A stretch of 20,000 nt of DNA from an uncultured virus (IMG/VR IMGVR_UViG_3300046557_000419) (taxonomy: Duplodnaviria; Heunggongvirae; Uroviricota; Caudoviricetes). The position numbers and the translations under genes were made by a program. The notes beneath the pieces were generated by a model that ran no database searches, had not been told where the DNA came from, and worked only from the letters and a program-made list of their open reading frames with translations. Below are positions 1,658-19,977 of this stretch, piece after piece. The stretch lies in IMG/VR virus record IMGVR_UViG_3300046557_000419, positions 52,277 to 72,276 of that record; one strand, given 5' to 3'. The first letter of the stretch is position 1. Every line of letters begins with the position of its first letter.

Positions 1658-1978
1658 TTATGCGAGGTGGTCGGGCCAGCCGGCCTGCGATGCCGCCTCG
1701 TTGGATTGGCGCCGTGCAGCGACGGCGCGACGATCAGCCTCGACGGCTGCGTAGGTCGGCAGACGGGTCCACTCGTCGTCGTATTCGCGAGCGAGGGTCT
1801 GCTGGACCTGGGAGGCAAAGAAGCGCGCGGCTTCTTCACCCATGTCTGCGAGGACGGTGTCCCCGAAGACCATTCGGAATTTGATGTTGGTCTGCTCGCC
1901 CTCGTTCTCGATCTTCGTGGCGGCGAAGGCGATCGGACCCGCGCGGACGACGGTGAGGTTCGTAATCTTCTGGGTCAT
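1658..1978 (-). CDS. Hypothetical protein (106 aa)
   Basis: ATGA-coupled to the MT-A70 gene stop, with GGAG upstream. Confidence 0.7.
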   Translation of the reverse strand: MTQKITNLTVVRAGPIAFAATKIENEGEQTNIKFRMVFGDTVLADMGEEAARFFASQVQQTLAREYDDEWTRLPTYAAVEADRRAVAARRQSNEAASQAGWPDHLA

Positions 1979-2610
1979 GCTGCGATCTCCGTGGCTTGGA
2001 CGTTGTCGTTGTCGAACTTGCTTATCTCGTTGCCCCAGGCGTCCCAGCCGGGGCGCTGCACGCGGGCGAAGATGTCGGCCTTCGGATATGGCCCAGCCAT
2101 CTTCGCGGCATCGACGTAGCCTTGCTCGGGCTTGCGCGAGTGCTCGCGGCGCGTCTCAAGGATTGCGGAGCGGATGTTGCGAGAGTGAATGCGGGGCTTG
2201 CCGATCTTCCCGATCAGGAAAGGCTCATGGCAGTTGCGCAGGACGTAGCCCGTGCCGAAGGTCGGCCGGCTCATATCCTTGACCATCTTCACCCACACGC
2301 CCTGGGTCACGTAGGTGACGTTCCACTGGCGGAAGCACTCGCGAGCGGCGTCGTACATCGGCGCGGTGGCGTAGAGCCAAACCCACATGCCATCGCGATG
2401 GGCGAGGCGATCAACGTCGAGCGCGAAGATGTCGTCGAGCGTCATGCAGTCGTAGTGCTGCTCAGCCGACTTGCCCTTGCCGGCGTCGGAGTAGGTCTTG
2501 AAGGTCCACGGCGGGTCGATCTTCGCGAGGCCGTAATGGTTCTCCTTCAGCGGAGCGAGATTGAATGTCGGTGCCGGGATGATCGGCATGGGGCTGACGA
2601 GCATTTGCAT
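1975..2610 (-). CDS. MT-A70 family N6-adenine methyltransferase
   Basis: IDPPW catalytic motif; HYDCMTLDDI; WVK; FGTGYVLRNCHE; REHSRKP; IFAR..RPGWDAWGNE. All are hallmark MT-A70 segments. Confidence 0.93.
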   Translation of the reverse strand: MQMLVSPMPIIPAPTFNLAPLKENHYGLAKIDPPWTFKTYSDAGKGKSAEQHYDCMTLDDIFALDVDRLAHRDGMWVWLYATAPMYDAARECFRQWNVTYVTQGVWVKMVKDMSRPTFGTGYVLRNCHEPFLIGKIGKPRIHSRNIRSAILETRREHSRKPEQGYVDAAKMAGPYPKADIFARVQRPGWDAWGNEISKFDNDNVQATEIAA

Positions 2611-2838: not shown

Positions 2839-3137
2839 CACTTCCCCGATTTCTCTTTCCACTCGCGGGCCTCAGCCAGCAGTCGTTGGTCGATCACCTT
2901 GGTCTCGTCCGTCTCCATGATCGCCTGCACCAGCAGGGCGTCAGGCAGGATGGACATGCACGGCTGCTTCTTGTCCGGCCGCTTGCACGAGGTCTCGGTC
3001 AGCTTCTCGCGGACGACGAACATCTCGCGATCGGCGCCGAAGCGCTCAATCAGGCCGTCGATCTTCAGACGGCCCTCTCGATCACAGTTGCCGCACTTCA
3101 CGCGCACATAGGGCAGGGGCCATTCAGCGAGCCGCAT
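2838..3137 (-). CDS. Hypothetical Cys-containing (putative Zn-binding) protein
   Basis: CGNC...REGR...LIERFGAD...C...C pattern, seen in small rhizobial and phage proteins. Coupled to neighbours at both ends. Confidence 0.65.
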   Translation of the reverse strand: MRLAEWPLPYVRVKCGNCDREGRLKIDGLIERFGADREMFVVREKLTETSCKRPDKKQPCMSILPDALLVQAIMETDETKVIDQRLLAEAREWKEKSGK

Positions 3138-3607
3138 CAGACCTCGGCCGGCTTGGTCGTATCGATCAGGTCGCAGGTCACGCCAACCTCGGCGTAGACA
3201 GCCTGAGCCTCAGCAAGCGAGTCCTTCCATCTCTCCTTCAGCTCCTCGGGCAGCTCCGGCGCGACCACGCGGGTGATGCCGGTCTGGATGACGTGGAGAG
3301 AGCAGCGCTTGCAGGTCAGGAACGGCCAGGTGTAGAGCGTGTAGCCATGCAGGGGCTCGCGAGCGGTCAGGATCGCGTTGATCTCGCCGTGGATCACGAG
3401 GTCGTACTTGATCTCGCGGGTCGTCAGGCGGTGCTCCGTGTCCGCAATGCCGCGGGGAAAGCCGTTGTAGCCGAGCGACGCCACTGTGCGGTCCGGCCGG
3501 GTGATGACGGCGCCGACCTTGGTGCTCGGGTCCTTGGAGGCCGCTGCGGTCGACTTCGCCAGACCCAGGAAATACTGGTCCCACCAGAGCTGAGAACGCT
3601 TCGTCAT
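3137..3607 (-). CDS. dCMP deaminase
   Basis: WDQYFL, SKDPSTKVGAVI, GYNGFPRG, HGEINA (HxE) and CKRC Zn ligands. Start at ATG 3607 is coupled to the upstream stop. Confidence 0.92.
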   Translation of the reverse strand: MTKRSQLWWDQYFLGLAKSTAAASKDPSTKVGAVITRPDRTVASLGYNGFPRGIADTEHRLTTREIKYDLVIHGEINAILTAREPLHGYTLYTWPFLTCKRCSLHVIQTGITRVVAPELPEELKERWKDSLAEAQAVYAEVGVTCDLIDTTKPAEV

Positions 3608-3870
3608 GCGATCACCTTCAGGCTGAGGATGCAGTAGCCGGGCGACAGGACTGCGCTGGAGAACGCGCACGGCACGGTGCGATTGGTGATGTAGGTGACT
3701 TCCACGTTGATCTCCTCGCCCGTGTAGAGGCCGTTGATGTTGTCGTATTCCTGGAGCACCAGGACGTCGCCGATCTGGAAGCCTTCATCCTCGCGCACGT
3801 CGTGGAGCTTGCGGCCGGCCTTGATCGCCTGGAAGAAATGGGTCCAGGACTTCTTGCGGTGGACCGCCAT
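3604..3870 (-). CDS. ASCH/PUA-like (DUF3850) domain protein
   Basis: HRKKSWTHFFQAIKAGRK...R...FQIGDVLVLQEY...YTG...VTYI...GYCILS. Confidence 0.85.
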   Translation of the reverse strand: MAVHRKKSWTHFFQAIKAGRKLHDVREDEGFQIGDVLVLQEYDNINGLYTGEEINVEVTYITNRTVPCAFSSAVLSPGYCILSLKVIA

Positions 3871-4553
3871 TACTTGGCGTCCTCCTGCGTAAAGTGGTTG
3901 AAGCCATCAGCGCCGACGAAGGGCTCGCACTTGGTGACCTTGCCCTCCTTCACCGCGCGCTCGACCAGATCGAGCATCTCGGAGGTGACCACGCCCTGAT
4001 GCCCCTTGGCGCGGTAGCTCGAAACAGCACGAGCCCGGAGCTGGATGCGGGGCGAGAGCGTCTCGATCAGGTTGTCGGTCTTGACGGGCTGAACCTCGAC
4101 CTTGCGCTCGACGTAGATCTTCTTGGGCTGCTGCGGCGCGGAGACTGCGACGCCACGGGCTGCCGCTGCCTGCTCGATGGAGAGACCGGCCTCGATCTCC
4201 GCAGGCGTGCGACGGAACCGCTTCGCCTTAATCTCGACGGGTTTCTCCGCTTTCACGGTCCTCGGCCGACCGCGGGCCTTCTTCACCTTCTGTGGCAAGC
4301 TGGCACGAGCTGCCATGGCCTGCTCGATGGTGAGGCCGAGTTCGATCTCCTGCATGTTCCGCTTGAACCGCTTCGTGGCGGCCTGCGGAGCAATGATCGT
4401 TGCGAGTTCGTTAACAACTTGGGTTGTCACGACCGGGGCCGTCATGGCGATCGGCGCAGCGGTATCCTTTGCCGGAAAAACAGGCAAAACCCTCTTAAAA
4501 AAAGCTCTCAGGCTCGATCCAAGCACGTTCGGAAATCCCTTCATCGTTTGCAT
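3870..4553 (-). CDS. Basic protein with a duplicated 23-aa motif and an AT-hook-like RGRPR; putative DNA-binding protein
   Basis: KRFKRNMQEIELGLTIEQAMAAR and KRFRRTPAEIEAGLSIEQAAAAR lie 50 aa apart with KKARGRPR between them. The start is uncertain (4553 or 4544). Confidence 0.6.
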   Translation of the reverse strand: MQTMKGFPNVLGSSLRAFFKRVLPVFPAKDTAAPIAMTAPVVTTQVVNELATIIAPQAATKRFKRNMQEIELGLTIEQAMAARASLPQKVKKARGRPRTVKAEKPVEIKAKRFRRTPAEIEAGLSIEQAAAARGVAVSAPQQPKKIYVERKVEVQPVKTDNLIETLSPRIQLRARAVSSYRAKGHQGVVTSEMLDLVERAVKEGKVTKCEPFVGADGFNHFTQEDAK

Positions 4554-4793
4554 TCGGCATTTGCATTAAAGCAAATAGAGAGGAAAAGCAAGAAGTAGGA
4601 GGGGAGCCCACTCCGTTCCATTTTGAACGGTTGTTCAGGCGCCAACCCTGCGCGGAATAGAAGGTTTTGCTATCTGGTTAATCCAATTGCCGTATTTCTA
4701 CGGAACCGAAATCAGGCTTGCATTTTGATGCAAATAGCGTTAGCTCACGGTCAAGAGGCGCCTGGCGGCAGGCTGCAGGGAATGAGAACAATA
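4554..4793. promoter_or_regulatory. AT-rich divergent promoter region with palindromic operator-like sites
   Basis: The only divergent intergenic region in the window. Contains ATTTGC-ATTAAA-GCAAAT (4559-4576) and TTGCAT-TTTG-ATGCAA (4718-4733). Possible plus-strand sigma70 promoter TTGCAT-N17-TAGCTC (4718-4746). Confidence 0.55.
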
Positions 4794-5102
4794 ATGAACA
4801 CGTCCTTCGAGTATCGGTCCTATCAAGTCAGCCACGACGGCGTCGCTTTCACCGCCGAACCCCAGGACGGGGAACCCTTCCAGCTCAGATCGAAGAACAT
4901 GCTTCGCGTCACTCGGGCGATCGATACCCTTTGGAATGCCCTCGAAGGAACCGTTGCCGCCCCGGCCTGGCTGTTTGAAGAGACCAGTTCCGTCGATCTC
5001 GATGCGGCCTCGGAGGCTATGCTGATCGTTGACCGTCCGAAGTCGGTGACCTACTTCCCTTTAGGGCCCATGGCTGGGATGCCCGCCCGCGCCGCAGCCT
5101 GA
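4794..5102 (+). CDS. Hypothetical soluble protein, paralog of the N-terminal domain of the next gene
   Basis: ATG 4794 (alternative 4782). Shares YRxYxV...AIDxLWxxLE...PAW...DLD with 5108..5719. Confidence 0.75.
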   Translation: MNTSFEYRSYQVSHDGVAFTAEPQDGEPFQLRSKNMLRVTRAIDTLWNALEGTVAAPAWLFEETSSVDLDAASEAMLIVDRPKSVTYFPLGPMAGMPARAAA

Positions 5103-5107
5103 GGCTC

Positions 5108-5719
5108 GTGATGACGACGATCTACCGGAACTACGTTGTCGCTCGTGTGGGCGACAAGTTTGTTGCTAAGTCGCCGGATGATGAATGCCTGCTGGTGTCA
5201 TCACAGCAGCAACGCCTTCACGCAGCGATCGACGACCTCTGGGATTCTTTGGAGAAGGGGGGCGAGCCTGCGTGGTTCTCCGGCAGCTCTGCCATCGATC
5301 TCGACACATTCGGGCCGGAAGCGGTGCCGTCGAGTTCTGACCCCCCTGAGTCGACGCCGAGGCCGGTTCTGAGGATCAGCTACGTCGCCTTCGTCGCCAC
5401 GGCGGTAGCTGTGTCTGCGCCGGTCTCTTATTTCATGGAGACGATGTGCTGGCCGATGCGGGTCGACGTCCTGTTGACCCTCGGGGTTTGTGCGGTCGCG
5501 GTGGCCTTCGGTAGGCGCTACGCACTGATCGCGGCCGGGATCGCAGCAGTCGTATTCAACTTTTGCGCCGTGGAGCCTCTATTGGCGTTCACGGTTCCTA
5601 CGACGAGTGAGATTGTCCTGATGGCGTTCAATCTCATCGCCGCTCTCGGCATTCCCGAGTTGCTCAAGCTGCGATGTCTTCAGGCCGCACAAGGGAAAGG
5701 CCGAACTCGGCGCATCTGA
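5108..5719 (+). CDS. Membrane protein: unknown N-terminal domain plus DUF4118 (KdpD transmembrane-like) domain
   Basis: About four hydrophobic segments, including LLTLGVCAVAVAFGRRYALIAAGIAAVVFNFCAVEPLLAFTV, which match the KdpD/DUF4118 pattern. GAGG RBS at 5102-5105 region; start GTG 5108 or ATG 5111. Confidence 0.75.
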   Translation: MMTTIYRNYVVARVGDKFVAKSPDDECLLVSSQQQRLHAAIDDLWDSLEKGGEPAWFSGSSAIDLDTFGPEAVPSSSDPPESTPRPVLRISYVAFVATAVAVSAPVSYFMETMCWPMRVDVLLTLGVCAVAVAFGRRYALIAAGIAAVVFNFCAVEPLLAFTVPTTSEIVLMAFNLIAALGIPELLKLRCLQAAQGKGRTRRI

Positions 5720-6317
5720 TCATCATGTCTTGTGTCCCTGTCCCGCCAGGACACGCGACAGCAAGCTGCGGGCGACCTTCGCGCAGCATTTGTTCATTTC
5801 GTACGTGGCCGGCAAGCACATCGTAGAGCTTGCCATATTTGTTCTTTTTCACCACGGCGCCCGGCCGATCGATGTTATCCCAGTCGGCCGGGTAGGGATC
5901 AAACGCGACACCACGATCCTCAGCCCATTTGCGAGCCAGCCTGTCAGCTCCAGACGCCTCCCCCTCAACGATGCATGTGATCCGCCTACGCGCATCGAGC
6001 GCGTCCAGACCGCGATACAGCGTATCTCTGTCGGCGTAGTTGCGGCCACCGAACACGACCACGCGGAAGTTCGCCTTCAGCAGGATCGAGTCACCGTGGC
6101 AGCGGTGCGGCGCGCAGTAGCACTTCAGGTTACTGCCGGTCAGCGCCGAGACATCCATGTCCGGCAGCTGCTCGCAGTCGAACATATTGCAGACCTGGTC
6201 GCGGTCGCCGTGCGCCCCGATGACGAACCGGTTGCCATAGGGCGAGCCGCGGCCGATGTAGACCGCGTCTGCTGGGGCGTCCTGGTGGTGGACGTTGTAG
6301 ACTCGAGGCGCCGGCAT
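5664..6317 (-). CDS. DUF4326 domain fused to a YspA/DUF2493-type SLOG domain
   Basis: N-terminal VYIGRGSPYGNRF...LKCYCAPHRCHGD (DUF4326). C-terminal VVVFGGRNY...VEGEASGADRLA...ADW...AGHVRNEQM...PGGTGTQDM (SLOG). Confidence 0.85.
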   Translation of the reverse strand: MPAPRVYNVHHQDAPADAVYIGRGSPYGNRFVIGAHGDRDQVCNMFDCEQLPDMDVSALTGSNLKCYCAPHRCHGDSILLKANFRVVVFGGRNYADRDTLYRGLDALDARRRITCIVEGEASGADRLARKWAEDRGVAFDPYPADWDNIDRPGAVVKKNKYGKLYDVLAGHVRNEQMLREGRPQLAVACPGGTGTQDMMIRCAEFGLSLVRPEDIAA

Positions 6318-6670
6318 CAGTTCATACCCTTTGGTCCGATCCCGATCGCGGTCAGCCTTGCCTTGAGCTGCTCATCGGTCTCGCCATCCTGCCGCTCCGT
6401 GAGGTAGCACTTCGCGGCATAGTTCAGCTTCTCGTCACGCAACGGTTCGAGCTGCCCCTGAATAGTCTCGGGCTTGATCTGTTGCAAAAGCTGCTCCGCC
6501 GGGATGGTGCGGGTCAGGCTTGCCATGCCTGGATTGGTGCAGACTGCCTTCAGTTGGCCTGGACCTTCGACGGAGGTGATCTTGAAGTACACCCCGTGAG
6601 CAAACCCCACCCCGTTGAACTGGGTCATCGCAATGCCGGCAATCCGGCCGATCAGATCATCATCGTTCAT
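6317..6670 (-). CDS. Hypothetical protein (117 aa)
   Basis: Start at ATG 6670 is ATGA-coupled, with AAAGGAAAG upstream. The stop overlaps the next start (TGATG). Confidence 0.65.
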   Translation of the reverse strand: MNDDDLIGRIAGIAMTQFNGVGFAHGVYFKITSVEGPGQLKAVCTNPGMASLTRTIPAEQLLQQIKPETIQGQLEPLRDEKLNYAAKCYLTERQDGETDEQLKARLTAIGIGPKGMN

Positions 6671-7771: not shown

Positions 7772-8022
7772 CGGAACGCCTTGCATGCGTCGCCGCTCCG
7801 GAAGGTGCCGGAGGGGCAGGCCGTGCCGGGGATGTACGGGTATGCGCGCGGGGTGTCCTTGTGGAGCGCCTCGCACTTGTCGCCGAGTCCGACGTAACCC
7901 GTGGGGCACGTTCCAGTGCGCTGGATGCGCTCCCTGCCATCTGGAGTCGGTGTGGGATATTTGGTCTCGGCGAGCGCAGGGGCTGCCAGGGTAAGCAAGA
8001 CGAGGGCGATGATCTTCTTCAT
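7768..8022 (-). CDS. Small secreted Cys-rich protein
   Basis: Signal peptide MKKIIALVLLTLAAPALA, followed by two CPxG...GDxC repeats. Confidence 0.75.
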   Translation of the reverse strand: MKKIIALVLLTLAAPALAETKYPTPTPDGRERIQRTGTCPTGYVGLGDKCEALHKDTPRAYPYIPGTACPSGTFRSGDACKAFR

Positions 8023-9260
8023 GGCTGATCTCCAATGATCTTTTTCAGTTCCTGACTGAGCAGTATTGAAACCGCCCGCTTCTCGGGCAGCATGTCGTAT
8101 TTGTCGTAGACGGCGGTGACGTCGCCATCGATGTGGTCGAGCATTGCCTTGACGTCCGGTCGCGGGGCGCCGCAGCGCCGGGCAAGAGTGGCCGCGGTGC
8201 GCCGGAGGTCGTGCGGGGTGAAGTGTTCCATCTTGAGGAATGACCGAATGCCGACCCGGTTCGAGCGCTCCTTGTCGTTCAAAGCCTGAGACAAAGAGCT
8301 GCGCTTGATCTCGACCTTCTCCCCGTACTTGGATGGGAAAAGACAGACCTGCTTCTCGTCCTTGATGGCGGCCTTGATGACCTCCGTTGCCAGCGGCGAG
8401 ACAGGCACGATCACCTCGCGCCGGCCCTTCACCCTGATAGGAGGCATCTGGTACTGGGCATGCTCCGTGCCGAGCCCGCTGATCTCCGACAGGAGGGCGC
8501 CGGCCGCCTGGTATGGTCGGACCATGGTGGCCAGAACCATCTTCAGCGCGAGCGCCACCTGGCGATCACAGGGCACGTCCGGATGCTCCAGACCCCACCA
8601 GAGCGTCCTAATCTCGTCGTCGGATAGGACCCTGTTCCGAGCCTTCTCCGATCCGCCGCGGCGCTCCATGCCGGTGATCGGATTGGAGGGCACGTATTTC
8701 CGGCCGGGCTGCCTGGCCCATTCGAACATCTTGTGGATAACCGACTGCGTCCGGTTGGCGCTGATCGGGGCATCCTCGGCGATCTCGTCGAGGACATCGG
8801 CAATGTCGTCGTCCGTCACCGTGTGCGCTGGCATGTGCCCCAGGGCGACCTTGGGGCGTTTCAGGTAGCCCTCGTCGTTCTTCCAGGAGGACTTGTTCGG
8901 CTTTGCGTACTCCTCCATGTAGGCGTCGCAGAGAGCTTCGAACGAGAGATCCTCTGCACGGGCCGCAGCACGCCGCTCGCGCCGCTGTTCGGATCGGGGG
9001 TCCTTGTCGTCGCCGATCTTCTTGCGCTGCTCGGCGGCCTTCTCTCGGGCCAAGGCGAGGGAAATGTCCGGATACCGACCGAGCGATATCCGGACCGCCC
9101 GCGAGAGCAGGGGCGACCAATAGGTGAGCGCGAAGGACTTGGCGCCGGACTTGAACACCCGGACCTTGAGCCCGGGGCAGGCATCGTCCGCGACGTCGAT
9201 CTGCTCTTTTTCTTGGGGGCATTTGAGCCCTGTGATATGCTTGTCAGTGAGCCTTGGCAC
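8019..9260 (-). CDS. int: Tyrosine recombinase/integrase with N-terminal arm-DNA-binding domain
   Basis: N-terminal DDACPGLKVRV..SGAKSF...LGRYPDISLALAR (arm-binding). Catalytic R (MVRP), HDLRRT, LDH and VYDKY. Start is GTG 9260 after GGAG (alternative TTG 9272). Adjacent to attP. Confidence 0.95.
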   Translation of the reverse strand: MPRLTDKHITGLKCPQEKEQIDVADDACPGLKVRVFKSGAKSFALTYWSPLLSRAVRISLGRYPDISLALAREKAAEQRKKIGDDKDPRSEQRRERRAAARAEDLSFEALCDAYMEEYAKPNKSSWKNDEGYLKRPKVALGHMPAHTVTDDDIADVLDEIAEDAPISANRTQSVIHKMFEWARQPGRKYVPSNPITGMERRGGSEKARNRVLSDDEIRTLWWGLEHPDVPCDRQVALALKMVLATMVRPYQAAGALLSEISGLGTEHAQYQMPPIRVKGRREVIVPVSPLATEVIKAAIKDEKQVCLFPSKYGEKVEIKRSSLSQALNDKERSNRVGIRSFLKMEHFTPHDLRRTAATLARRCGAPRPDVKAMLDHIDGDVTAVYDKYDMLPEKRAVSILLSQELKKIIGDQP

Positions 9261-9293
9261 CCTAGTCTCCAACTTCGAAAATCCAGCAGTTTG

Positions 9294-9559
9294 CCTTACC
9301 TACAGTGAAGGAAAGCCTGATGCTTGGTGGACCATATTTGCATCCGTGCAAGCGTGCAAGTAGAAAGATCAATGACTTGACCTCACTCATGCGGTCCACT
9401 TGCACCATAAAGCAAATGCAAATCAGCCTGGGAGACTAGGGGTCGGAGGTTCAAATCCTCTCGCTCCGACCAAAATAACCAAGTAATAACAGATACTTGG
9501 CAACTCGGTCAGAAACCCAATCTTCTCCCAAGCCGATCAAAGGTAAGGTATAGGTAAGG
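9294..9559. repeat. Putative integrase arm-type sites and IHF-like site flanking the att core
   Basis: CCTTACCTA (9294-9302) is inverted relative to tandem AGGTAAGG (9541-9548) and TAGGTAAGG (9551-9559). GATCAATGACTTG (9367-9379) is a near match to the IHF consensus WATCAAN4TTR. Confidence 0.6.
9428..9472 (+). mobile_element. attP core: 3' 45 nt of tRNA-Pro(GGG)
   Basis: CTGGGAG-ACTAG-GGGTC-GGAGG-TTCAAAT-CCTCT-CGCTCCG-A-CCA gives anticodon loop, 3' anticodon stem, T arm, acceptor strand and CCA. No 5' tRNA half lies upstream. Located between int and xis. Confidence 0.9.
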
Positions 9560-9612
9560 AAATCTCAAGACCCAGGTGAGAACGCCTGACATCGTCTGCT
9601 CCTGCCTCAACG

Positions 9613-9640
9613 AAAAATCGCCGGCTCTGAGGCCGACGAT
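9613..9640 (-). terminator. Rho-independent terminator after the excisionase
   Basis: Minus strand ATCGTCGGC-CTCAGA-GCCGGCGAT followed by TTTT, about 10 nt after the stop at 9650. Confidence 0.65.
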
Positions 9641-9649
9641 CCTTCAGTT

Positions 9650-9862
9650 CTAAGCAGCATTACTGAGCTGCTTCTGCCATTCGATCACCTCGTCCAGGTA
9701 CCAGGCGATCCTCCCATCGGTAATCTTCTTGGCCTTGGGGAAGGAGCCGTCGCCCGCCTTACGCAGCAGGGTGGCTTTGCTGAACGGGACCTTCCCCAGC
9801 ACCTCCTTGACGCTGATCATCTGTCTCAGCTCGTTGTCCTGGGTCGTCGTCTCGGTGGTCAT
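9650..9862 (-). CDS. AlpA-family HTH protein, probable excisionase/recombination directionality factor
   Basis: MISVKEVLGKVPFSKATLLRKAGDGSFPKAKKITDGRIAWYLDEVIEW is the AlpA pattern. GAGG RBS; next to attP. Confidence 0.88.
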   Translation of the reverse strand: MTTETTTQDNELRQMISVKEVLGKVPFSKATLLRKAGDGSFPKAKKITDGRIAWYLDEVIEWQKQLSNAA

Positions 9863-10139
9863 TCTGGTCGTCCTCAAAGAGTGGGTCTCGGGTCAGCTTG
9901 CAGGTCCGCCGGACCTCCTCAGCCTCGTCATTTTCGCCATAGTCGCAGTCGCCGCAGCGGGTGCATGTGTTGACCGGGATGGAGCAGCTGCAGAGGCCGC
10001 GCTCGCCATCGCAGCTGGCGCTACACCCGCCGATGGACTTCATGTCGCAGCCCAGCTCTCGGCAGGTAGCGGTGGCCGCGATCCTCTCCAGGTGGGCGAC
10101 ATGCGCCCGGGCTGTCTCCAGTTGATCAGTCAGATTCAC
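9759..10139 (-). CDS. Cys-rich hypothetical phage protein
   Basis: CRELGC...GGCSASC...CSCSIPVNTCTRCGDCDYGEN. The C-terminal tail overlaps the AlpA gene, so the true end may be functionally irrelevant. Confidence 0.6.
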   Translation of the reverse strand: MNLTDQLETARAHVAHLERIAATATCRELGCDMKSIGGCSASCDGERGLCSCSIPVNTCTRCGDCDYGENDEAEEVRRTCKLTRDPLFEDDQNDHRDDDPGQRAETDDQRQGGAGEGPVQQSHPAA

Positions 10140-10512
10140 GGCCGGTCCCCGGGATCATCCAGATGCTGAACGACGGATCGCCGCAGCCGGCGCCCGATCC
10201 ATTCCGTCCATAGATGACGATGTCGCCATCCACGGGATCGCCCAACCTCGGGTGATTGGGATAGAAATCAGTCTTCCAGATATTCGTCCGGTACGGACCG
10301 TTCGGCGGTCGTCCCGGCCTCCAGGCCGCAGTCAGGCCCATCATGCTGAGGGGGCGGTGGCGGTACGAGCTTTCCTTACTCATGTCGCCGCGAACATCCA
10401 GTTCCACATCCCAGCTGTCGTGGACCGTGGTCACGTCGATCCACTCCCTGTCGTCATCGAAGTCTCGACTCGGCGCGGGTCGGCGGAGGATCATCATCGT
10501 GTCCGGTCTCAT
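10126..10512 (-). CDS. Hypothetical protein (128 aa)
   Basis: Start at ATG 10512 is ATGA-coupled, with GGAG upstream. Confidence 0.55.
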   Translation of the reverse strand: MRPDTMMILRRPAPSRDFDDDREWIDVTTVHDSWDVELDVRGDMSKESSYRHRPLSMMGLTAAWRPGRPPNGPYRTNIWKTDFYPNHPRLGDPVDGDIVIYGRNGSGAGCGDPSFSIWMIPGTGRESD

Positions 10513-10691: not shown

Positions 10692-11011
10692 TGCTTTTTC
10701 CCAAAGACGCTGTCGACGGTCGGCGCCCGCTCATCGCTGGGGGCTATCCAGACCCTCGTCTGCCGGTTGCCGTGATTGTTGCCCTTGACGTGAAAGTCCT
10801 GCTCGTGTCGGGCTCGGTTCAGTTTTGAAACCATGACACGGAAGCCGGCGAGCATCGCTTGATCGTGATCTCGAAATGTCTCCGGCTTCCCGTCCTTGCC
10901 ATTCACCCACTCTGGCGAAGATCCCGGGATGCCGTAGGTCGCGTGGTAGAGACCATCGATTTCCTTGTGGGGTACAACTGCCGAATAGTAGGAGTTGGCA
11001 ATCTTGGTCAT
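10688..11011 (-). CDS. Hypothetical protein (107 aa)
   Basis: ATGA-coupled at both ends, with TAAGGA RBS. Confidence 0.7.
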   Translation of the reverse strand: MTKIANSYYSAVVPHKEIDGLYHATYGIPGSSPEWVNGKDGKPETFRDHDQAMLAGFRVMVSKLNRARHEQDFHVKGNNHGNRQTRVWIAPSDERAPTVDSVFGKKQ

Positions 11012-11985
11012 GCAGCTTTCCTTAAGACGTCTAGCTCGATGAATTTGCGGTTCTGGCTCCAGCCGCGGAAATTTCCGTGAAGGTGCGACTGCTGCCAGTA
11101 TCCGACGCGGAACTCGCCATACGGCCCGATCTGACCCGGCACTCGGACGTCTGGCGTGGCCTGATGCTCAGCCGGTGAGGCGTGAAGCGGCCGGGCACCG
11201 ACGAGGTCGTTGAACAGCGCGAGATCCTTGTGGACCTGCGGCTGCTTGCCTTCGTGGGTCAGGTAGGAGGTGCGAGCGCAACGGGCGACGGAGATTTTCT
11301 TCTGCGTATCCAGGTCGAGCCACTCCTGCTCGAACTCCGAGACGAACGGCAAATGCCATTGGCCCGGCTGCAACAGCTGTGGCTTGCTGTCGGCAAACGC
11401 TGCCTTGATCGCGATAGCCAGCGCCTGGATCTCCGGCTGTGCATCCTTGTGGTCACGCAGCTCGAAGAAGTTGTCCCAATCGGTCGCTGTGATCAGGACG
11501 TTGATGTGGGCGTAGGGCTCGAGAATGCGGTTGACGACCTGTTTGTGATAGCCGGCCTGGTCGTAGGCTCGTGCGAATGCGATGGCGTGGTCACGAGCCT
11601 CGCACCACATCTGCTGCGGCGACAGCAGCGATCCCATGAGGACGTTGTCGTTCGCGAAGGGATTCTTGATGTAGTCGGTCAGCTCGATGTCGGCCTGCAT
11701 GCCCTTCTGGTTTTTGCCCCAGTGGATCGGCATGGCCGTGTCGCGGATGATGTCGTCGATCAGACGCTGAACCGGGATCGCGCGGGAACTGGAAGCGTTC
11801 CGAGACAAATTGCGGTCGTACATCAGGCCATCGTTGATCTCGATGATCATGTCGGGCGTCGAGCTGAGGACGCGATGGGTCAGCTCTTCAGCGTGGATGA
11901 ATCGCGGGTAACGCGCGAGCACCGTCTTCAGTTCGATTTGCTGAGGCGAAACCGAATGCAAAACTTTAGTTGCAGAGACCGTCAT
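11008..11985 (-). CDS. thyX: Phage-type FAD-dependent thymidylate synthase (ThyX/Thy1-like)
   Basis: YPRFIHAE..THR, SRNASSSRAIP, HKQVVNRILEP, NFFELR...AQPEI, WHLP, SVARCARTSY and HASPAEHQA are the motifs of the phage Thy1 clade. Confidence 0.85.
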   Translation of the reverse strand: MTVSATKVLHSVSPQQIELKTVLARYPRFIHAEELTHRVLSSTPDMIIEINDGLMYDRNLSRNASSSRAIPVQRLIDDIIRDTAMPIHWGKNQKGMQADIELTDYIKNPFANDNVLMGSLLSPQQMWCEARDHAIAFARAYDQAGYHKQVVNRILEPYAHINVLITATDWDNFFELRDHKDAQPEIQALAIAIKAAFADSKPQLLQPGQWHLPFVSEFEQEWLDLDTQKKISVARCARTSYLTHEGKQPQVHKDLALFNDLVGARPLHASPAEHQATPDVRVPGQIGPYGEFRVGYWQQSHLHGNFRGWSQNRKFIELDVLRKAA

Positions 11986-12681: not shown

Positions 12682-12803
12682 GCTCACTCCAAAAATTGAC
12701 AAATAGAAAAGACGTCTATCGGAACCGCCCCGGTCACCCAATCGAGTGCCGGGGCTTTGCATGGAGGCAATCCATGCAATCCGTTGTGTTGTCGCGGAGG
12801 TCG

Positions 12804-13691: not shown

Positions 13692-13750
13692 GTAGTGCTC
13701 CTTGAAAACCCGTTTGCAGGGTCAGTTGCATTCAAACAAACGCGAGGGGA

Positions 13751-14256: not shown

Positions 14257-14322
14257 AGTCAGTCTCCTTTGCAGTGGTTATTTGCATTCAAGCGCGTAAG
14301 AAAGCAAGCGAAAACTTGCGGC

Positions 14323-16305: not shown

Positions 16306-16420
16306 CTGATTTCCTTTCGATTTGCAGGCTTCCGGCCTGCACGGTTTGCATTCATGCGCCGCACAGCGCATGGGTAGTCGGCCGGACCCGTAGATCCGGC
16401 TGTCTCGTTGACTGCGACGA

Positions 16421-16545: not shown

Positions 16546-16549
<4 letters not shown>
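16421..16549 (-). CDS. Small Zn-finger-like protein (42 aa; DUF1660-like)
   Basis: Not in the track: [43 protein letters not shown]-x4-H...CxxC; ATGA-coupled to the nrdJ stop. Confidence 0.65.

Positions 16550-19977
<3,428 letters not shown>

Follow-up and report, generated by a model that had tools for sequence, protein, structure and literature searches.

A conserved, counter-oriented gene pair of temperate Bradyrhizobium phages in which one acidic N-terminal domain occurs alone and joined to a DUF4118 membrane module

Why would a temperate phage keep two small genes that face nearly all of their neighbours, and what might their products do with a domain that both carry, once in a soluble protein and once in a predicted membrane protein? 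Here, we describe such a pair, genes A and B, in a 20,000-nucleotide (nt) stretch of DNA from an uncultured virus (positions 52,277 to 72,276 of IMG/VR record IMGVR_UViG_3300046557_000419), hereafter the window, which is the final 20 kb of that 72,276-bp record (estimated 60% complete); the same region is also present in a 119,289-bp record (98% complete), with 97-100% identity between the compared proteins. An earlier note, made from the letters of the window, had proposed a counter-oriented cassette in which an unrecognised domain recurs with a KdpD-like membrane domain. Both genes are in fact paralogous at their N-termini and conserved as a syntenic pair, and we propose, at a probability of about 0.35, that the shared domain binds a partner, that DUF4118 of B serves as anchor or sensor, and that A is an anchor-less competitor. 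The pair has the following features (handles beginning with L and P denote loci and proteins of our collection).

4794-5102, plus strand: gene A, 102 amino acids (aa), ATG 4794 to TGA 5102
4794-5009, plus strand: N-terminal domain of A (aa 1-72), followed by a tail modelled at low confidence (aa 73-102)
5085-5099, plus strand: C-terminal ARAAA of A; orthologs end A-(A/V)-A
5101-5104, plus strand: GAGG, putative Shine-Dalgarno site of B read from the sequence, overlapping the stop codon of A
5111-5719, plus strand: gene B, 202 aa, ATG 5111 to TGA 5719
5381-5698, plus strand: four predicted transmembrane helices of B (aa 92-112, 119-134, 136-154, 166-197)
5664-5719: convergent 56-nt overlap of the 3' end of gene B with the 3' end of a DUF4326+YAcAr gene

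The N-terminus of A is 41% identical to that of B over 64 residues (BLASTP, E 7e-11), and the two ortholog families align by profile-profile comparison (hhalign) with a probability of 98.3% and E 1.7e-14 over 64 columns; the paralogy that the earlier note had read from aligned strings, which are present in the translations, is therefore significant by both methods. Residues R8, Y10, R38, D44, W47, P57 and W59 (A numbering) are invariant across both families. AlphaFold2 (AF2) predicts the same compact domain in A and B, in which four strands are followed by a helix of 16 residues and another, short strand (predicted local distance difference test, pLDDT, 83-95); for A the beta4-alpha-beta fold has pLDDT 83-91 at residues 1-70 and 47-59 in the tail. 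A quick tree of 158 N-domain segments places A-type and B-type domains in different halves, with the B domain of phage BDU-MI-1, together with P0084 and P0081, in the A-type half, the tree being weakly supported (80 columns, Shimodaira-Hasegawa-like approximate likelihood ratio test values mostly under 95); because of this placement, repeated fusion or gene conversion may have shaped the history of the domain. Prediction of an A-B complex from full-length B and A alignments scored 0.00 against a mark of 0.32, which is no evidence either way.

Gene B consists of the N-terminal domain (aa 3-68), a linker of the form GPE..PS..DPP (aa 69-91), DUF4118 (aa 94-182) and a basic C-terminal tail, where residue numbers count from V1 at 5108. 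Residues 94-182 match PF13493 (DUF4118) at E 4.7e-10 and 39.6 bits (cut-off 28.4; model positions 6-90 of 107; 41.5 bits on the DNA level), and DUF4118 is the sole family of B in NCBIfam, PHROGs and Pfam. Neither HisKA nor HATPase is found in B in Pfam at E<=10, and the protein stops at residue 203, 21 residues past the match. With four helices in the AF2 model (mean pLDDT 79; helix block 71-87), the earlier description of a DUF4118 domain that lacks a kinase stands. Residues D120, G135, N151, P157 and P164 are invariant in 34 sequences, the C-tail has a net charge of +6, and the flanking Arg and Lys residues suggest an N-in/C-in topology for what is predicted to be an inner-membrane protein. 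Fold searches of B returned helical-bundle noise only (Foldseek best E 0.49; VIA Z<=8.2).

The membrane part of B belongs with other short proteins. Many proteins of about 200 aa (P0118-P0216) match a profile of both families in the membrane part only, and the membrane part of B is 45% identical (E 6e-15) to other short DUF4118 proteins; their N-terminal domains are of at least four further, unrelated and unannotated kinds, frequently with PSE(T/V)DPP before helix 1, and one of these kinds is represented by the DUF4118 protein of prophage ppBdUSDA122-1. Elsewhere DUF4118 is a four-helix membrane module ahead of the cytoplasmic signalling domains of other histidine kinases, and it is placed likewise at the head of PelD in PMC7890745; its occurrence in these proteins marks it as a general anchor or sensor module and not as a signature of KdpD. 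Among the papers listed for DUF4118, alone or in combination with phage, none deals with short or phage forms as judged by titles and abstracts.

The shared domain comprises about 70 residues, is alpha/beta, acidic and phage-associated, and follows the consensus YRxY...DG(D/E)...R(L/V)xxAIDxLWxxL...PxW...IDLD. The earlier note did not recognise it, and it stays unrecognised after wider searches: the domain has no match in Pfam (E<=10), PHROGs, NCBIfam or PADLOC, the whole of A has no family in these same four, 44 family members match 0 PHROGs families, and a PDB sequence profile search yielded nothing below E 0.5. Among folds, the best PDB match by Foldseek has E 0.27, the best row of a wide VIA search has Z 4.9 with a root-mean-square deviation of 3.3 Å over 55 residues (6d7k_H), and VIA rows for AP2, arm-type and WGR-like domains lie at Z 2.9-3.9, which is noise level. 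The best BFVD match (E 0.024) is to uncharacterised phage proteins of 50-66 aa, and the ESM Atlas returned near-self viral clusters only, at 0.83. A HicB/UPF0150-like fold was considered and dropped, with no Pfam match at E<=10 and structural rows at noise level.

A profile of both families finds 141 proteins at E<=1e-3 among 1.84 billion representatives, and in these the domain is always N-terminal. It occurs standalone (75-150 aa), before DUF4118 (P0089, P0091, P0101), before PAS (P0186, P0194), and, in at least nine proteins, before one hydrophobic helix, a DxDxDG motif and a beta-rich C-terminus; in the distant relative L045 a protein in the same slot joins it to a C-terminal hydrophobic helix. 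Among longer fused forms, one protein of at least 231 aa carries the domain (P0186). No context for the PAS and DxDxDG fusions was found in viral scans with P0136, P0194, P0091 and P0089 or in two metagenome scans, and P0153 and P0194 had no tblastn match among 50,697 phage records. The mean net charge of the domain is -4.9 (-6 in A) and is negative in 143 of 157 copies. This acidity favours protein binding over DNA binding, so that a DNA-binding output domain, as hinted by the AP2 or integrase-arm-like rows (Z 2.9-3.9), is unlikely. The domain is rare, being found in 4 of 401 sampled genomes of the host's family and, in the class and order samples, in 1 of 401 genomes each, only the genome anchoring the sample. 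Three other prophages of the host's bacterial family also have a standalone copy of 80-93 aa as the next gene after that of the tape-measure protein (PhageMin_Tail, 1047-1290 aa).

L025, 9126-9470: standalone copy, adjoining an integrase
L026, 8738-9085: standalone copy
L027, 9021-9302: standalone copy

Orthologs of A form 42 homologous clusters of about 100 aa and those of B form 35 clusters of about 200 aa (34 with PF13493), both drawn largely from Bradyrhizobium genomes and from soil or rhizosphere metagenomes; for at least 15 clusters the longest contig has one and the same length. A search of sequencing runs listed 15 rows from rhizosphere or root DNA metagenomes and none from RNA. An A ortholog lies directly upstream of B on the same strand (junction -4 to +35 nt) in all 15 loci retrieved with B. 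Of these, 13 come from IMG/VR records and the other two from a GenBank phage and a Bradyrhizobium genome; about 10 of the 15 are distinct (L007 is the window's own phage, L008 equals L009, L012 nearly equals L013, L014 equals L015, and L016 nearly equals L017). The pair is always flanked by the dCMP deaminase side and by the DUF4326/YAcAr gene, which lie on the opposite strand, and the 3' overlap of B with the latter gene is kept at 38-56 nt in 12 of the 12 loci compared; no terminator-like site was detected between B and this opposing gene. The pair is also present, at 33-41% identity, in the isolated phage BDU-MI-1 (KY940711), which has B. diazoefficiens USDA110 as host. The GenBank record of this phage leaves the two genes (L001 5598-5948 and 5983-6642; KY940711.1 about 40987-41971, minus strand) without annotation; they fall in a gap of 1.4 kb that separates ARQ95299 (dCMP deaminase) from ARQ95298. 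Since the slot is the same in all 15 loci, even where identity drops to 33% as in BDU-MI-1, the pair belongs to the core of a temperate Bradyrhizobium phage lineage of about 120 kb; the tandem occurrence that the earlier note had asked about is thus real, and its suggestion of a moron, which would imply sporadic presence, is not supported. In provirus G1188 (121,913 bp, 100% complete) the pair is about 4.5 kb from the end, and integrase is the last gene in this and in all of four provirus-type records, which puts the pair a few kb from the prophage end.

A further arrangement of the slot was seen in L045 (1526-2488; IMG/VR record of 100,992 bp), where two genes lie between a DUF4326/YAcAr-like gene and dCMP deaminase, both counter-oriented. 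They encode a 132-aa winged-helix regulator (HTH_IclR E 6e-7, TrmB E 1.4e-6) and, after it, a 171-aa N-domain protein with a hydrophobic C-terminal helix.

Genes around the pair in the window, all with family support except the 227-aa gene, are as follows.

1975-2610, minus strand: methyltransferase gene
3137-3670, minus strand: dCMP deaminase gene
3604-3870, minus strand: DUF3850 protein gene
3870-4553, minus strand: 227-aa gene without a family, divergent from gene A
5664-6317, minus strand: DUF4326+YAcAr protein gene
8019-9272, minus strand: integrase gene
9650-9877, minus strand: AlpA-type excisionase gene
11008-11985, minus strand: thymidylate synthase gene
16546-19977, minus strand: ribonucleotide reductase gene

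All 26 called genes of the window other than A and B are on the minus strand. PHROG matches are present in 17 of 27 minus-strand open reading frames (ORFs) scanned and absent from 5 other plus-strand ORFs scanned (3 with coding-like G+C content at third codon positions), each of which overlaps minus-strand genes; A and B are thus the only supported plus-strand genes, with ORF 9729-10169 (plus) still a candidate. The product of 3870-4553 has no family in Pfam, PHROGs, NCBIfam or PADLOC, shows 50-63% identity, far below the conservation of its neighbours, and is missing from about half of the relatives. Neither an Rfam match (within 3800-6400) nor a tRNA (anywhere in the window) was found. Integrase and excisionase are separated by 377 bp (9273-9649), a gap that holds two inverted TTTGCAT sites and is likely the phage attachment (attP) region, because the four provirus-type records stop right after integrase.

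The junction between A and B is tight. B starts at GTG 5108 or, more likely, at ATG 5111, since homologues begin MTTIYRNY and GAGG sits 6 nt upstream of that codon. Judged by this junction the two genes are translationally coupled, and its TGA+GG form is kept in 9 of 11 other loci (exceptions L001 and L019, the latter with an ATGA overlap). The end of A is also conserved: in 41 A sequences A102 never varies and A100 reaches a conservation of at least 90%, and the final three Ala codons vary synonymously over 11 loci while A-(A/V)-A persists. ClpXP recognises Ala-rich ends of the kind found in transfer-messenger RNA (tmRNA) tags. One lysogen's genome encodes the tmRNA tag ANDNFAPVAQAA, which ends AQAA, and the A protein of the prophage in this lysogen ends SVQAAA. 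Through such an ssrA-like end A may be short-lived. Ala-rich ends were seen elsewhere as well: among the other, minus-strand proteins of the window, 8 of 26 end in Ala and 6 of 26 in AA or VA, far above the expectation from alanine frequency.

Upstream of A, G+C content falls to 0.48-0.53 across 4350-4950 compared with 0.60-0.68 around it, in agreement with the AT-rich region reported earlier. Three blocks 5' of A (CCGTA-N4-TACGG, CTTGCAT-N4-ATGCAAAT and TTAGC(A/T)) recur in conserved form at 11 distinct loci, even where protein identity has fallen to 33-41%, so the cassette does have an upstream region of its own.

4690-4703, plus strand: palindrome CCGTATTTCTACGG (CCGTA-N4-TACGG), present once in the region and largely conserved in 11 upstream regions including BDU-MI-1
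4717-4745, plus strand: block CTTGCAT-N4-ATGCAAAT-N4-TTAGC(T/A), about 75 to 50 nt before the start of A
4547-4576: two distal TTTGCAT copies with palindrome ATTTGCATT/AAAGCAAAT, at the start of the divergent gene 3870-4553 (minus strand)
2604-2610, 4547-4576, 9337-9343, 9416-9422, 12756-12762, 13726-13741, 14281-14287 and 16345-16351: TTTGCAT motif sites of the window

Within the block at 4717-4745, a candidate promoter or operator, the columns CTTG..T...TGCAAA...TAGC are invariant in the 11 loci. It holds the sole TTGCAT-N3-5-ATGCAA palindrome of the 72-kb record, as a unique N4-spaced variant. The element at 4547-4576, which the distant L045 retains too, repeats a motif seen throughout the phage and goes with the leftward genes, not with the cassette. 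Counting both strands, the 72-kb record has 24 copies of this motif, TTTGCAT, where base composition alone predicts 3.2. The copies are often part of the near-palindrome TTTGCATTCAAGCAAA, which lies some 0-40 nt from the start of a gene, points against that gene and sometimes takes in its start codon (ATGCAAA); the motif may be an operator, promoter element or RNA hairpin. A GC-rich hairpin of differing sequence per locus lies at 4746-4780 of the window and at the corresponding place in 10 loci, between the TTAGC block and the ribosome site. As a leader hairpin it was rejected: it folded in 11 of 11 upstream regions, but with z from +0.09 to -2.7 against shuffles and no consensus by RNAalifold.

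Taken together, these data can be read as follows. A and B would form a conserved, separately promoted and translationally coupled operon of the lineage, in which the shared domain would act as a partner-binding output or recognition module, a role suggested by its architecture and charge. In B the four-helix DUF4118 module would hold this domain at the cytoplasmic face of the inner membrane, serving as anchor or as a sensor of membrane state, and A would compete with or titrate B, either for a common partner or by pairing with the N-domain of B. The cassette is directed against the integrase and nucleotide-metabolism genes around it, with one of which it shares a tail-to-tail overlap, so that its transcription must run into that of the opposing operon; from this layout we infer that the two are expressed at different times, with A and B probably made when the surrounding genes are silent, that is, in the lysogen. 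There the operon would be an accessory membrane module that protects the lysogen or feeds a membrane signal into phage decisions. This reading has in its favour that the domain occurs either free or fused to modules that act elsewhere as anchors or sensors. The paralogy and common fold, the constant pairing of A with B, the acidity of the domain, the general use of DUF4118 as an anchor, the conserved upstream blocks, the convergent overlap and the place near the prophage end count for it as well.

Several points weigh against it. Partner binding is proposed from architecture and charge for a domain without a characterised relative, and no PADLOC defence model matches the pair. In G1187 about 30 kb separate the pair from CI-like (HTH_3 and weak S24) and Cro-like genes, and in G1188 and BDU-MI-1 these are far from it as well, which leaves the pair outside a classical immunity region. 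A sigma-70 consensus scan found no promoter upstream of A, so the block at 4717-4745 is a putative control element. The ssrA-like end of A is undistinctive, since AA or VA ends in 6 of 26 other window proteins weaken the hint of instability. A core pair inside a nucleotide-metabolism block would fit a role in the lytic cycle too.

A possible, if doubtful, alternative is an abortive-infection or toxin-antitoxin-like system, in which the DUF4118 bundle of B would be a membrane-damaging effector that is inactivated by A, its labile truncated paralog; if synthesis of A stopped, through prophage loss or host shut-off by an invading phage, A would be degraded and B would act. A small upstream gene coupled in translation to a larger downstream gene has the expected layout, and the A-(A/V)-A end is held at the protein level and resembles the AQAA end of the tmRNA tag, but ends of AA or VA are frequent among the proteins of this phage, the acidic A lacks a DNA-binding domain with which to autoregulate, and no toxin or antitoxin family of PADLOC, Pfam or PHROGs is matched. 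The short DUF4118 module with its at least four other N-terminal domains and shared PSE(T/V)DPP linker shows diversification typical of conflict systems, and the patchy distribution (4 of 401 sampled genomes of the host's family) also counts for this alternative; to our knowledge, however, DUF4118 is not known as a toxin. One short DUF4118 gene adjoins the repressor and integrase of prophage ppBdUSDA122-1 (OP596612), yet without a soluble partner upstream. We give still less credence to a bolder form, a new phage-borne conflict module whose antidote, in place of a DNA-binding antitoxin, is a truncated paralog of the cytoplasmic domain of the effector, short-lived through a tail mimicking the tmRNA tag of the host, and whose effector is the DUF4118 four-helix bundle acting in the membrane. 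If this were true, the clade of about 200 aa (variable N-domain, PSExDPP linker, DUF4118) would be a modular sensor-plus-membrane-effector family of prophages.

The pair could instead belong to a lysis-lysogeny or induction sensor, which we also consider unlikely: B would sense membrane or ionic state by means of DUF4118, its N-domain would sequester or release a regulator of phage or host, and A would buffer the free pool. Fusion of the domain to sensor-type modules (PAS and the periplasmic DxDxDG form) agrees with this, as do the winged-helix regulator directly upstream of, and co-oriented with, the tail-anchored N-domain gene of L045, the core and syntenic status of the pair, and the half-sites TTGCAT/ATGCAA that its upstream block shares with the phage-wide motif. 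The distance of about 30 kb to the CI/Cro-like genes speaks against it. An accessory role in the lytic cycle, for instance membrane anchoring of a replication or nucleotide-metabolism complex with no regulatory meaning to the orientation, appears improbable. Presence in every relative retrieved, including the isolated phage BDU-MI-1, and the setting among dCMP deaminase, methyltransferase, thymidylate synthase and ribonucleotide reductase genes would be expected of such a role, whereas the conserved upstream region of the pair, its conserved tail-to-tail overlap, and standalone copies that follow the tape-measure gene in three other prophages, once beside an integrase, and do not lie amid replication genes would not. 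The earlier note had further suggested a decoy or modulator of host sensor kinases, which for those of KdpD type would act through mixed membrane-domain oligomers. B does carry the Pfam domain of the KdpD membrane region, and some sources label homologues 'K+-sensing histidine kinase KdpD'; its membrane part, though, shares only 27.7% identity (E 4e-4) with the KdpD-like protein that a lysogen itself encodes versus 45% with the short forms, it scores 16.7 bits with the KdpD equivalog model NF007793 (cut-off 1123), and DUF4118 is found in other kinases and PelD besides, which makes a decoy very improbable.

With the reading of a partner-binding domain, an anchored B and a competing A, or with any of the others, the locus defines an undescribed phage-associated domain that is repeatedly tethered to the membrane by different anchors. 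It also extends DUF4118, so far known only as the membrane part of kinases and PelD, to a short module of prophages that stands alone and takes exchangeable N-terminal domains. Direct tests are feasible, as BDU-MI-1 grows on B. diazoefficiens USDA110 and carries the pair, and should the pair control exclusion or induction, it would matter for the ecology of phages and rhizobia in soybean inoculant strains.

Compared with known systems, B is like the DUF4118 proteins KdpD, other kinases and PelD in its family match and four predicted helices, and unlike them in having no kinase, GAF or GGDEF domain and in placing DUF4118 C-terminally, followed by a basic tail of about 18 residues. A further likeness is WAX24305.1 of ppBdUSDA122-1 (L002 3680-4315), a short DUF4118 protein of a Bradyrhizobium prophage whose gene is counter-oriented and near integrase and a helix-turn-helix regulator; it is 34-35% identical to B across the membrane part, and differs in its unrelated helical N-terminal domain (TDxxRRxALxLAIQLPEDV type) and in having no soluble paralog gene upstream. 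No literature was found under the name ppBdUSDA122-1, and the main text of PMC10127595 has 0 occurrences of DUF4118, KdpD or superinfection. PADLOC-DB 2.0 defence models match A and B with 0 families at E<=0.1. The lambda prophage encodes RexA, which is soluble, and after it RexB, which spans the inner membrane with four helices, a layout that A and B resemble on paper; RexA and RexB are not paralogs of each other, unlike A and B, which match no Rex family (Pfam E<=10, PHROGs, PADLOC) and, with the CI-like gene about 30 kb away, do not sit beside the repressor. Type II toxin-antitoxin operons also couple a small upstream gene to a larger downstream one, and the possible degradation tail of A would be a further likeness to their antitoxins, although A and B match no such family and A has no DNA-binding antitoxin domain. 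Truncated-paralog inhibitors, such as dual-start holin/antiholin pairs, provide a last parallel: there, as with A, the smaller product shares the interaction domain of the larger one.

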